DNA of 61,726 bases, from positions 1-61,726 of IMG/VR virus record IMGVR_UViG_3300005611_000023, one strand, 5' to 3'. The notes under the pieces are model-generated. The model searched no databases and was not told where the DNA came from. It saw nothing but the letters and a program-made list of their open reading frames with translations. This DNA is from a virus. Taxonomy: Duplodnaviria > Caudoviricetes. Made by a program: the position numbers and the translations under genes. Positions 31,001-31,962 of this stretch are shown here, piece by piece. Numbering within the stretch: position 1 is the stretch's first letter; each line of letters begins with the position of its first letter.

Positions 31001-31866
31001 TTATGTACGACATGGATGACTCAGGAAACCCACTTGGTTTGCGGGATATTGACCTTTGGTTCCGCACTTGGTGGATTCCAAACACGTTTGGCCCCGGTAG
31101 TGATATGGCTAAATTCATGGGGCTTAGTGACAAGGGCGCCATTCTTGCCTCTCGTTCAGCGGAGATGGGTCTTATCTCTGCCCTTACCGGTATGAACATT
31201 GGGTCTTCCACTTCTCTCGATTCGTTGTTCTTTAACAGTGACACCATCGGACGAGATAGCCGCACAGCCCTACAGGAGTATGCATACACACAATTATTTG
31301 GTCCTGTAGGAAGTATGGCGCTATCGTTTATTGACGGGTATCAAGACATCGCTAATGGTGATATTAACCGAGGGGCTGAGAAGTTTATGCCCGCCGCTAT
31401 ACGTGGCGCGATCAAAAGCCTACGTTTAACTGAAGAAGGCGAGTTGACGCGTAAAGGCGCGGAAGTGCGTAATCGTGAATACTTTACTCAGAATCCGGAG
31501 AAAATTGTTGGGCAGGTGCTTGGCTTCGCGGATACAGAAGTAGCGCAGCAGCAAAAACGTAACATTCTGGCTAAGCGCGTAGAGATAGCGATTAAAGAAG
31601 AGCGCGGCAAAGTGCTTGCAGATCTTGATCGTTCTGTGCAGAAGTACAATAACAACCCAACGGATGCACGGTTTGAAAGCATAATAGAAGATTTAAGAGC
31701 GATATCTCGGTACAACTACAAGAACTTTATGTTGCCTATCAATAACGAAACTATCAGCAAGTCTCTAAAGGGGCGGGCAGAGCGTAGAGCGGCGGCGATG
31801 AATGGTTTGATTGTTGATAAAAATACCGCCCCGTTCTTGTTCGATATGATTATGAGGGGCATGTAA
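25027..31866 (+). CDS. Giant internal virion protein with zincin (HExxH) domain
   Basis: 2279 aa; IILHELFHAAT followed by REFVAY; last gene of the late arm. Confidence 0.75.
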   Translation: MAESNLFTLDDVFPTPQTTDKETQEGVFTLDDVFGAPQQTQQETFTQEQAFASPLEQPDVEDAGFFRSVGDVGLGIGQGVLTITDAVATAFAGADSDLSKGISSAKGYLAELLSAEGKQDAARAAQILKEAEDAGVLDGLWAGVRAVAADPSGMISQGVGSLVPFLAANLLTGGGATGAVALGSLGATSGAGIVKESIYDAVKNELMANGESEAKAEKIAAQAQSYGGDNLDQILLGGGLGIFASLGPAEKLGFNKALKGNIAKRMGIKSLEEAIPEAIQAGQEQAAANIALQREGFDVDTFRGVTAQATAEGIIGGILGAPAGIARAPDDPDKFVEDAGAEEDVEAIKALVNESQKVKSGQPEATDETDDLQPDTGGVEPSVPTPDGQLGEQPTTVSPAEPAVGGVEPAPSSVDDAGVGEGDVNTALALAARLEEAEAELAEMQTEFEGASAQVQTDLQTTEPEAQDMLAKHADLVAAKDQEVAQLRQQYEAVQQRLQPKTAETVIERTTPEGETTTETRTGPATDAELGIPAKPTKPGRRSVQDIDVEREAERVNKAVDTPKATQRTKKQILQSAREMTGRVTRDEATAQELEAEVERIRTTEGEDAANMFADEAQKILNKSATDKRQLKVTGKRKPKSKQVDEPAADAQDEAEIRNLAKRLMDAQSKAAEDTDHRARKRGLKAAATRANKQLFEGIAQFYGRELDPEDRIAVASALMSGQPLPDLKAKTVAPEVEPELNPETGLENPGKKQKNQGGRPKMYEGEQAEQRAAERTQDSTARMTLQRAVERAVEVLSTPTLDMFKAIYGETNPAVQDAETLTELLEDVYNGDVDALRDDMRIIMDIRASRIADAFRVLKNTTVGAKTKAKQLAKDIVEDTGGKFDIAPEERARAEQMAETDPELSRRSRPEQSIEDRAAPPQAQLLGDTTNDTVDRTFEGFNTARAALDHIIETGTAFEKLLARRIRKAVGNVQIRIVRNLEDIPPRLRSSFEGRNAARGVYVHKSEQGNIVYLNDINGRGDGLTNTIILHELFHAATEGLIGTRIQEIEEDSENYMANTTRRALQQLTVVMDAARKVYLEREQYGLTTAREDRLYALGAFDDLREFVAYGFTQPEMQTFLTTVPGIFATQEAKNQNLFGRFVDLVRKMFNIPDNVSTAFLDLVALGDQIVDAPFIDMSEGILLEANSTQGQKKQKDVDRKILNSNTGNQFRQGMGQSIKNSFRNWAQMKSLLVNGFESMDVGRVFTFAKAATADQLADWASSVGMGKIAEVNNIIQKKMVPYKDQILADLHQKVKEWEAFNTKYPKLIQAFVDMLHYATLTGVDPASYADVDDALQTAPDLIEARNNLQTAINNNDSAGRIRGLRANVTKIENTIRDTFERWENIKENSESVTRKRPKRDKNLNIIKDANGKPVIETVTMPEAQFLYEMIRNKYRDTYVERKKLLRAQVENSGLSGDPNDPSTPLGKALAGLEETFAKADKVKVYFPLMRQGKHWVRIGRGKNKIFAMFEDRLSRDMYIDNMVEQMRANGEASTKQELEEMGFIAKGDDTRNFQTELMKISPGDQGAAILRQIDNQIAGATNLSQKEIEALRNNIFQMYLMTLPDRDIRKRFSPRKGTAGFSGDGLRNFIISELSAANQLSRMKYSSEIRLRLGEAEELSKIGSNAAQRGVLFREFAQRVEDEMLPEYDESIFQKLAGLGNQAAFIMMLTSIKSALVQFTQLPIVGTNVLAAEYGYTKTFGMMGNYALLFNKLGTSKIDPVTGEMITQWGQPSVGDSKYAHKKPHLRKAWEWAHNLNMFQQTYSADLGGAAKEPTANSLRAGNRISRGVYNLMTGAFFHSERLSREVMYMSAFEMEYDKQVKAGKSADEAQELAQEKAYELTKEALFNYSQFNKPPIMKKYAISRLAFQFMTYTQQMVVFLMKNLYQMIRLEPTMEGRIEASQKFMGTLIATTLFAGIPGLPLYSVVTGTINAFREMERPDEEDDEMRALMYDMDDSGNPLGLRDIDLWFRTWWIPNTFGPGSDMAKFMGLSDKGAILASRSAEMGLISALTGMNIGSSTSLDSLFFNSDTIGRDSRTALQEYAYTQLFGPVGSMALSFIDGYQDIANGDINRGAEKFMPAAIRGAIKSLRLTEEGELTRKGAEVRNREYFTQNPEKIVGQVLGFADTEVAQQQKRNILAKRVEIAIKEERGKVLADLDRSVQKYNNNPTDARFESIIEDLRAISRYNYKNFMLPINNETISKSLKGRAERRAAAMNGLIVDKNTAPFLFDMIMRGM
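26126..26311 (+). CDS. Candidate overprinted 61-aa gene in +1 frame of giant protein
   Basis: GAGG 6 nt before ATG; amphipathic helical sequence; host frame is low complexity here. Confidence 0.45.
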   Translation: MKRTIYNLTPEELSLAFLHLMGSLENNQLPYHLQNLQSEEWSQLLAALMMLELEKEMSTLH

Positions 31867-31891
31867 AAAAAGACCCCGCACGGGGCGGGGC
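31865..31891 (-). terminator. Rho-independent terminator ending the replication arm
   Basis: Minus strand GCCCCGC-CCCGT-GCGGGGT-C-TTTTTTT. Confidence 0.85.
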
Positions 31892-31962
31892 ACAGCTTAT
31901 AGGGAGTCAACCTATAGAGGTAACCACGAAAACAATCTGCGTCTCACCGCGTCTCATCTCGT
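31865..31962 (-). ncRNA. Candidate anti-SD small RNA / 3' UTR element
   Basis: Minus strand GGUUACCUCUAUAGGUUGACUCCC is complementary to several phage RBSs; possible TTTACG-18-TACTGT promoter; own terminator. Confidence 0.5.

Follow-up and report, generated by a model that had tools for sequence, protein, structure and literature searches.

A candidate small RNA (sRNA) of ~96 nt (positions 31867-31962, minus strand) at the end of the replication operon of the virus IMGVR_UViG_3300005611_000023 (Duplodnaviria; Caudoviricetes) is complementary to the 5' leader of that same operon. The whole stretch that we analyzed, hereafter the window, spans 61,726 bp; it is a complete virus record and carries direct terminal repeats. 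On balance, we think it probable that this operon-end structured RNA pairs with the leader of its own operon and occludes the ribosome-binding site (RBS) of the first gene, which would give delayed negative feedback. The anatomy of the element, its complementarity to the leader, the specificity of that match, and the co-variation of the two partners in relatives are all observed; the core reading, an anti-Shine-Dalgarno (anti-SD) RNA directed against its own leader, is supported by partner co-variation, by covariation within the RNA structure, and by a conserved −10 element. Judged by its sequence, the element is a new, conserved, covariation-supported family of phage anti-SD RNAs, which would work like known 3' untranslated region (UTR) and anti-SD regulators.

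Complementarity between the operon end and the operon leader

The gap at 31867-31976 (~110 nt) resembles the 5' leader of an operon and forms the 3' untranslated end of that same operon. We place it there because of the positions of the operon promoter (36635-36608), the stop codon of the last gene (64 aa), and the intrinsic terminator (31891-31873); promoter and terminator scans thus predict that both partners lie on one transcript. The promoter (TTGACA-16-TATAGT; 36608-36635, minus strand) matches at 11 of 12 positions, scored best in a scan of 30-45 kb, and is kept in relatives; its predicted start is the first G of GGAGUCAAC. The leader itself, GGAGUCAAC-AAAA-AGAGGUA (36581-36600, minus strand), lies upstream of the ATG at 36572-36574. 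At the other end, the terminator hairpin (31873-31891, minus strand; seven pairs, six of them G-C) ranked first in the 30-45 kb terminator scan and lies 86 nt past the stop codon of the 64-aa gene, a layout repeated in relatives; the sequence, the open reading frame (ORF) list, and the terminator scan place its tail of seven U at 31865-31871 (minus strand). Between promoter and terminator we found a single weak terminator-like site (32562-32536).

The initial annotation described 31903-31922 on the plus strand as an inverted, two-block copy of the leader at 36581-36600 on the minus strand, and this proved exact and unique: GGAGTCAAC occurs exactly twice in the window, at 31903-31911 (plus) and 36592-36600 (minus), and the pattern GGAGTCAAC-N4-AGAGGTA occurs only at 31903-31922 (plus) and 36581-36600 (minus), even when two mismatches are allowed. 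Shuffled windows contained a mean of 0.05 matches to the two-part pattern, and 0 of 100 shuffles reached two. We scored the RNA core by duplex energy against the leader windows (−30 to +3) of the 83 called genes. The leader of its own operon ranked first of 83 at −30.6 kcal/mol, followed by −24.9 kcal/mol for the next best (mean, −15.9; standard deviation, 4.1), so the minus-strand RNA does complement the leader and RBS of its own operon, as the annotation had claimed. The annotation had also allowed that the complementarity might be no better than that to random SD-containing leaders: 0 of 2000 dinucleotide shuffles of the RNA reached −30.6 kcal/mol, and when the costs of unfolding were included (cofold), the net energy of −22.6 kcal/mol was matched by 0 of 300 shuffled leaders (−7.5 ± 2.9 kcal/mol).

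The predicted minus-strand RNA folds into hairpin SL1 (31925-31963), hairpin SL2 (31898-31916), and the terminator. Its 5' end is placed ~7 nt past a −10-like hexamer and its 3' end in the U-tail, both by prediction. SL2 consists of UAUAGG, the loop UUGACUC, and CCUAUA, and sits directly upstream of the terminator; it appears in both minimum-free-energy and centroid folds, which agrees with the earlier description of UUGACUC as displayed in a hairpin loop. The loop and 3' arm (GUUGACUCC, 31903-31911) complement the first 9 nt of the operon leader. Upstream of SL2 is the anti-SD stretch GGUUACCUCU (31916-31925, minus strand), unpaired in both folds, in which UACCUCU (31916-31922) complements the SD sequence AGAGGUA of the first operon gene.

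SL1 (minus strand) varies in sequence among clades and here holds GCGTCTCA twice in tandem (31939-31956), with a 10-bp period and a degenerate third copy. The tandem is specific to the window, missing even from the closest relatives (L002 and L003), and on its own does not exceed chance (2 found and 2.25 expected).

Co-variation of the two partners in related phages

A primase search yielded 40 related loci in viral contigs, and primase alignment added 80 in metagenome contigs, for a total of 120 (primase identity, 36%-84%). Megablast of positions 31000-33000 against a phage collection gave no match. By primase, the nearest isolated phage is Pseudomonas phage Rollin (30.6% identity), whose convergent genes overlap; hence it has no gap and no such element.

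The leader and the operon 3' end are visibly complementary in the first seven clades, through differing sequences. Taken over seven clade representatives, their own pairs total −154.5 kcal/mol versus a mean of −113.5 kcal/mol for permuted partners, and 8 of 5040 permutations were as low; most of this signal comes from three clades, and two clades show no excess. A larger set comprised 82 distinct pairs of UTR and first-gene window (−30 to +3), 61 of them with a terminator-type UTR; the terminator was excluded from matching. A perfect complement of ≥9 nt joins the UTR to the first-gene window in 43 of these 61 loci, compared with 30 of 594 other RBS windows of the same loci, and complements of ≥11 nt are found in 25 of 61 first-gene windows versus 7 of 594 others. 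In 37 loci no other RBS window matches as well as the own leader, and in 4 it ties for best. Thus, the co-variation of the two sites in related genomes that the initial annotation had named as a test of its idea is found.

Several partner types shift together: GGAGCAA(A)C occurs with (U)UUGCUCC, GGAGCUAA with UUAGCUCC, GGAGCGAU or GGAGCGAA with AUCGCUCC or UUCGCUCC, GGAGCAG with CUGCUCC, and CCUUGGAGAAA with UUUCUCCAAGG. In the clade of the window, GGAG-U-CAAC occurs with GUUG-A-CUCC, which is one extra base in each partner relative to the neighboring clades. The bases 5' of GGAG likewise track the 3' arm of the hairpin (GAA/UUC, AGA/UCU, and GAAA/UUUC). The binary trait UAGCUCC versus UUGCUCC changes just once on the tree, so independent contrasts are uninformative and we used per-position counts instead. 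On a FastTree primase tree of 85 rows, 48 of them anchored on complementarity of ≥8 nt that includes GGAG, seven positions flanking GGAG (each ≥60% Watson-Crick) require no fewer than 21 double changes in which one Watson-Crick pair replaces another, a count to be read as a rough measure and not as a probability.

Two exceptions are instructive. Locus L027 has an extra small ORF after the promoter, and its 10-nt complement falls on the RBS of that ORF, not on that of the 132-aa gene with which the operon otherwise begins; in clade C the match falls on the second gene. Because of these two cases, we take the tracked feature to be the promoter-proximal RBS of the operon, not one particular protein. 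In clades B and C, the RBS contexts of operon genes 1 and 2 are alike (GUAGUUAGAAGGAGCUA...; ~4570-4583 in L024/L026; L009 and relatives), and in clade C the 10-nt match to the hairpin loop is retained by the second gene alone, which looks like a shift of the target by one gene.

Conservation of the RNA structure

RNAalifold on clades A to C predicts SL2 and the terminator. A covariance model built from the clade A-C alignment finds exactly one match in the window (31866-31979, minus strand; 64.8 bits). Hits came from 28 of 91 sources, with each locus contributing a single copy, and every copy lies downstream of the 64-aa gene; four related phage records, each scanned over a further stretch of 15-20 kb, contributed none. 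In the alignment of SL2 and the terminator, which was fitted to the covariance model and so favors structure, paired cells amount to 97.4%, and two-sided changes occur at 9 of 12 pairs. Four of the five SL2 stem pairs show them (93.4% of cells paired), as do five of the seven terminator pairs, all seven of which are kept. The structure covariation score of 0.333 was equaled by 0 of 500 shuffled alignments, which gave 0.116, and sliding the pairing register gave at most 0.09. Paired positions include 13 G.U and no A.C combinations on the operon strand, which argues, at the level of sequence comparison, that the operon (minus) strand is the structured one.

By minimum-free-energy fold, the complement overlaps the hairpin loop in 37 of the 43 pairing loci, and the stems there differ in sequence (GGAAG/CUUCC, GAGAG/CUCUC, CGGAAG/CUUCCG, and AGGG/CCCU). 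Many relatives retain only the loop seed, without the single-stranded seed.

A candidate promoter for the RNA

The initial annotation proposed a promoter, TTTACG-18-TACTGT, and its −10 half fared better than its −35 half. The −10-like hexamer TACTGT (31969-31974, minus strand) starts 5 nt after the first base of the 64-aa gene stop codon; in 51 of 61 loci, TAnnnT (mostly TATACT) begins 3-7 nt past the first base of that stop codon, in 46 distinct 14-nt contexts, versus 214 of 3660 control windows (5.8%). The −35-like TTTACG (31993-31998, minus strand) lies 18 nt upstream of the hexamer, within the codons G-L-R of the 64-aa gene; relatives have TTTACG or TTGCGN 16-18 nt upstream of the −10-like hexamer, in codons for G-L/V-R. 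An independent transcript starting near 31962 therefore seems likely from the arrangement of these motifs.

A search for RNA runs yielded one, with 10% of the sampled words, and contigs from four runs aligned to the region cover 34675-35297, 35430-35859, and 36363-36664; they are strand-blind and carry no transcript ends or abundance. Metatranscriptome contigs include a 65-nt piece with six differences over 31968-32032 and none over 31867-31967, which permits no conclusion either way.

Proposed mechanism and its weak points

We suggest that the RNA would come from two sources, probably its own weak σ70-type promoter (TTTACG-18-TACTGT), whose two elements flank the last stop codon of the operon, and the tail of each operon transcript; both would end at the common intrinsic terminator. 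The leader would be bound at its 5' end (GGAGUCAAC) by the SL2 loop and 3' arm (GUUGACUCC) and at its SD sequence AGAGGUA by the single-stranded UACCUCU upstream of SL2; the combined pairing would mask the RBS of operon gene 1. With rising operon output, the first gene or genes would be translated less, and the duplexed mRNA might be open to cleavage; the outcome would be delayed negative feedback, or a timer, on the replication module. On this proposal, the RNA would accumulate, pairing would repress translation, and action would be in trans rather than solely within a single molecule.

A number of observations weigh against this mechanism. Complements of ≥9 nt to the first gene are absent from 18 of the 61 loci, and in 20 of 61 another RBS of the locus outdoes the own leader, the window being one of these by exact-match length; in clade C, the best match (10 nt) falls on the second gene. 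Because any anti-SD sequence can pair with any SD sequence, some of the signal is not particular to these two partners. The count of at least 21 double changes considers only rows that already pair over ≥8 nt and relies on a one-gene FastTree tree, on which phage mosaicism could inflate the number of events. As for structure, the fold of the window has an unremarkable z-score (−0.48), and SL2 is lost if folding begins at the stop codon, so the true 5' end matters. The candidate promoter scores just 7 of 12 in the window; its −35 lies in coding sequence, which confounds its conservation, and is missing in clade C.

Alternative explanations

The strongest competing explanation, possible although we doubt it, is that the element acts only in cis: the 3' UTR of the 4.7-kb operon mRNA would fold onto its own 5' leader, with no separate sRNA, and would either block re-initiation at the first gene or protect or expose the mRNA ends. 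Both partners fall in one predicted transcription unit with the single weak terminator-like site between them, the complementarity and co-variation fit pairing in cis as well as in trans, the internal promoter lacks its −35 in clade C, and two reports provide precedents (PMC3868564 and PMC12697547). What speaks for a free RNA is that the −10-like TAnnnT is kept in 51 of 61 loci despite variable neighbors, a feature that a purely cis-acting element would not need; moreover, the ends are 4.7 kb apart with translating ribosomes between them. Three hairpins followed by a U-tail are the typical layout of free sRNAs, which the element resembles. Between a free sRNA and 5'-3' pairing within the operon mRNA we are undecided: the same data fit both.

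It is rather unlikely that the element is instead a broad anti-SD regulator, or mimic of a ribosome site, acting on several early operons and possibly host mRNAs, with its own leader as one target of many. The idea derives from further RBS matches listed in the initial annotation, all of which are present on the minus strand as described. Five of them match the single-stranded seed: an 11-nt match at 52280-52290 (AUAGAGGUAAC), where the gene is the first after the promoter at 52394-52366; an 11-nt match at 49543-49553 (UAUAGAGGUAA), ahead of a MoxR-like ATPase gene that is the first after the promoter at 49664-49636; and matches of 10 nt (46784-46793), 9 nt (44477-44485), and 9 nt (40300-40308). 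The sixth, GGAGUCAA (54039-54046), is an 8-nt match to the loop seed that ends 2 nt before an ATG at 54035. The five seed matches end 5-7 nt ahead of the called ATG, and the promoters upstream of the two 11-nt sites are the two other 11/12 promoters. Seeds match RBSs of their own clade: for clade A seeds, matches occur in 5 of 38 and 6 of 48 windows of clade A and in 0 of 69 of clade B; for clade B seeds, they occur in 4 of 36 and 4 of 33 windows of that clade. In clades A, B, and C alike, the orthologue of the ATPase gene (49536) retains a match to the seed of its own clade, and the element has a subthreshold likeness to anti-SD sRNA families.

The matches claimed for a multitarget sRNA are real and lie at RBS distance, but the regulon built on them is weakly supported. 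Duplex energy does not separate early from late genes (Mann-Whitney p = 0.45), and plus-strand genes hold ranks 2 and 3 of the 83 leaders. The two 11-nt matches are not independent, because they share a duplicated 22-nt leader block. A clade-wide RBS style can account for the matches. In the window, 3 of 38 RBSs match the seed of clade B as well, and many relatives that keep the loop seed lack the single-stranded one. A regulon is possible, but the data do not require it.

Near the possible targets, a 22-nt block, GGCTTGTGACAATGTAACAAC, stands upstream of the RBSs of the genes starting at 52274 and 49536. Within the early region, 47249-49536 encodes a MoxR-like AAA ATPase (PHROG 1297) followed by a DUF2201 metallopeptidase/VWA-like protein, and has its own 11/12 promoter (49664-49636). 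A terminator (54079-54062, minus strand) is followed by AGGAGTCAATT-ATG, which opens a small ORF with a hydrophobic start that is absent from simple gene calls.

We consider it very unlikely that the inverted copies are protein sites, either double-stranded DNA operators (for example, for the 78-aa helix-turn-helix [HTH] protein encoded in the operon) or, in the plus-strand late transcript, a decoy RBS that titrates a repressor or 30S subunits. Recognition by one protein could equally make two sites co-vary, and the terminator lacks a U-tract when read in the plus direction, which may let late transcripts continue across the site. Against this, the match is always centered on the SD sequence of the promoter-proximal gene, the SL2 stem co-varies as RNA (13 G.U and 0 A.C on the operon strand), the terminator and −10 are oriented for the minus strand, no plus-strand ORF is conserved among the 61 loci, and the obvious operator-like palindromes of this genome have different sequences. 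Translation of a plus-strand peptide from the SD-like words was rejected separately: as noted in the initial annotation, these words have no ATG, GTG, or TTG 4-12 nt downstream in the window, and the suitably spaced starts found in 15 of 61 loci open nonconserved ORFs of 1-39 codons.

Least likely of all, and already disfavored, is that the match has no function and arises incidentally from a strong SD sequence and a terminator region rich in C and U: any anti-SD-like run pairs with any SD sequence and the fold z-score is unremarkable, but the top rank of the own leader (with 0 of 2000 shuffles equal to its energy), the excess at first-gene windows (43 of 61 versus 30 of 594), the double changes on the tree, and the compensatory changes in the hairpin all argue otherwise.

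Comparison with known RNAs

PMC3868564 describes an anti-SD motif in the 3' UTR of the icaR mRNA of Staphylococcus aureus that pairs with its own SD region. The phage element is similar in that a pyrimidine-rich 3' UTR motif complements the SD sequence at the start of the same transcription unit, and, by analogy with that account (PMC3868564), blocked initiation and a double-stranded RNase substrate would be expected here too. There are also differences: the phage element belongs to a 4.7-kb, five-gene operon, whereas the icaR mRNA is monocistronic; its motif lies in a hairpin loop beside the terminator and pairs in two parts (9 + 7 nt); and a likely promoter of its own could free it as a separate RNA. 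Moreover, the phage element is known from sequence alone. In B. subtilis, measurements have shown anti-SD-like repression acting over long range within mRNAs (PMC12697547).

sRNAs derived from mRNA 3' ends are the subject of a review (PMC9438474), and Pseudomonas phage PAK_P3 produces two 3' UTR-derived RNAs, ncRNA1 and ncRNA2, which are given without an assigned target in the passages of PMC10914365 that treat them. Our element resembles such RNAs in lying at the 3' end of a coding operon, sharing its terminator, being ~100 nt long, and having an RBS-directed seed; it differs from them and from the PAK_P3 RNAs in that its predicted main target is the operon that encodes it (self-regulation), and it is unrelated to them in sequence.

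Searches against Rfam at gathering scores were empty for the entire window and for 14 related loci. Below that level, an alignment to RF00519 (suhB/MmgR, or alpha-r8), a family of Hfq-dependent alphaproteobacterial sRNAs with an anti-SD motif (PMC7143759), covers the full model; the window scores 22.6 bits, short of the 41 required at gathering level, and relatives reach 36.6 (L122), 35.2 (L009), 29.3, and 24.9 bits, also below 41. The likeness takes in a length of ~77 nt and CU-rich anti-SD-like motifs beside a small hairpin, followed by a G+C-rich terminator, but suhB/MmgR occupies a chromosomal intergenic locus while our element is phage-borne at the end of an operon. Other relatives score best against unrelated anti-SD sRNA families (for example, anti-hemB, 32.9 bits); we therefore do not claim membership in RF00519, and the likeness may be generic.

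The c4 antisense RNA of phages P1 and P7 (immI operon) is, like our element, a phage RNA located in the operon of its target; through two short exposed segments it masks an RBS region that follows the same promoter. Its reported position is upstream of the target, from where processing releases it; the present element, by contrast, is at the 3' end and has its own terminator. The Rfam C4 model had no match in the window at its gathering score and none around the site at E ≤ 10. A non-exhaustive literature search returned no described phage operon-end RNA aimed at its own leader.

Genome setting and the replication operon

The plus-strand structural genes of the window finish with an ORF of 2279 aa (25027-31866), toward which the minus-strand early and replication genes run convergently; the U-tail of the minus-strand terminator overlaps its TAA stop codon (31864-31866). 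The C-terminal part of the 2279-aa protein matches PHROG 10089 (DarB-like antirestriction), with an LPD39 domain below threshold.

ORF listing and domain searches define an operon of five genes on the minus strand (31977-36574), whose gene order is preserved in related loci. In transcription order, an SNF2 helicase gene (36632-38188, minus strand) precedes the operon promoter, and the operon, all on the same strand, comprises gene 1 (132 aa; 36176-36574; start codon ATG at 36572-36574), gene 2 (302 aa; 35256-36164), gene 3 (78-aa HTH protein; 35020-35256), gene 4 (DUF927 primase/helicase; 32152-34995), and gene 5 (conserved, 64 aa; 31977-32171; stop codon at 31977-31979). The label SSB attached to gene 1 in the initial annotation is unsupported: the sole match of gene 1 is PHROG 13900, DUF7307 and Mu Gam fall below their cutoffs, and family and structure searches found no NCBIfam match and no PDB relative.

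The −35 of the operon promoter lies inside an exact palindrome, TTGACAAAGTCAA, found in the window only at 36623-36635 and 52382-52394; both copies contain the −35 of a strong early promoter, and relatives have TTGACATTGTCAA at the equivalent position. This palindrome could be an operator overlapping the −35. A second motif, [A/T]TGTAACAAC, has 14 sites at ≤1 mismatch versus 3.8 expected (0 of 100 shuffles had as many), 12 of them in the early region, and occurs twice as the palindrome GTTGTTACATTGTAACAAC; sites within 44229-54765 include 54747-54765, 51927-51945, 52294-52303, 49558-49567, and 44802-44811. It looks like an operator for a phage regulator.

Four ~60-kb contigs with close primase relatives (L127-L130) are binned in metagenome-assembled genomes (MAGs) of Caulobacteraceae, Actinomycetota, Sericytochromatia, and Bacillota. 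The MAGs belong to four different phyla. These are probably phage contigs swept into MAGs by binning and are unreliable as host evidence; we draw no host from them.

Implications for phage regulatory RNAs

Functional regulatory RNAs of lytic phages are few, and most candidates from transcriptomes have no known target. Here the target was identified by sequence evolution alone, from sites 4.7 kb apart that change together in dozens of uncultured phages. A more far-reaching version of our interpretation is unlikely, although a little less so than a broad anti-SD regulator: the element would be an RNA timer, founding a widespread family (>40 distinct uncultivated aquatic phages), that is made both from its own promoter and as the tail of replication-operon transcripts and that shuts, by means of two anti-SD seeds, the first genes behind the three strongest early promoters (52394, 49664, and 36635); it might be derived from or mimic a host anti-SD sRNA of the MmgR/SuhB type and so reach host mRNAs.

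For annotation, the findings yield a simple rule, a hairpin loop ending in GCUCC beside a terminator, downstream of a DUF927 primase gene and a 64-aa gene, and the covariance model can be used to annotate the element in related genomes. If pairing between the operon-end RNA and its own leader is true, it would be among the better-supported phage RNA-RNA interactions known solely from metagenomes, and would provide a phage example of the 3' end of an operon regulating its own 5' end.

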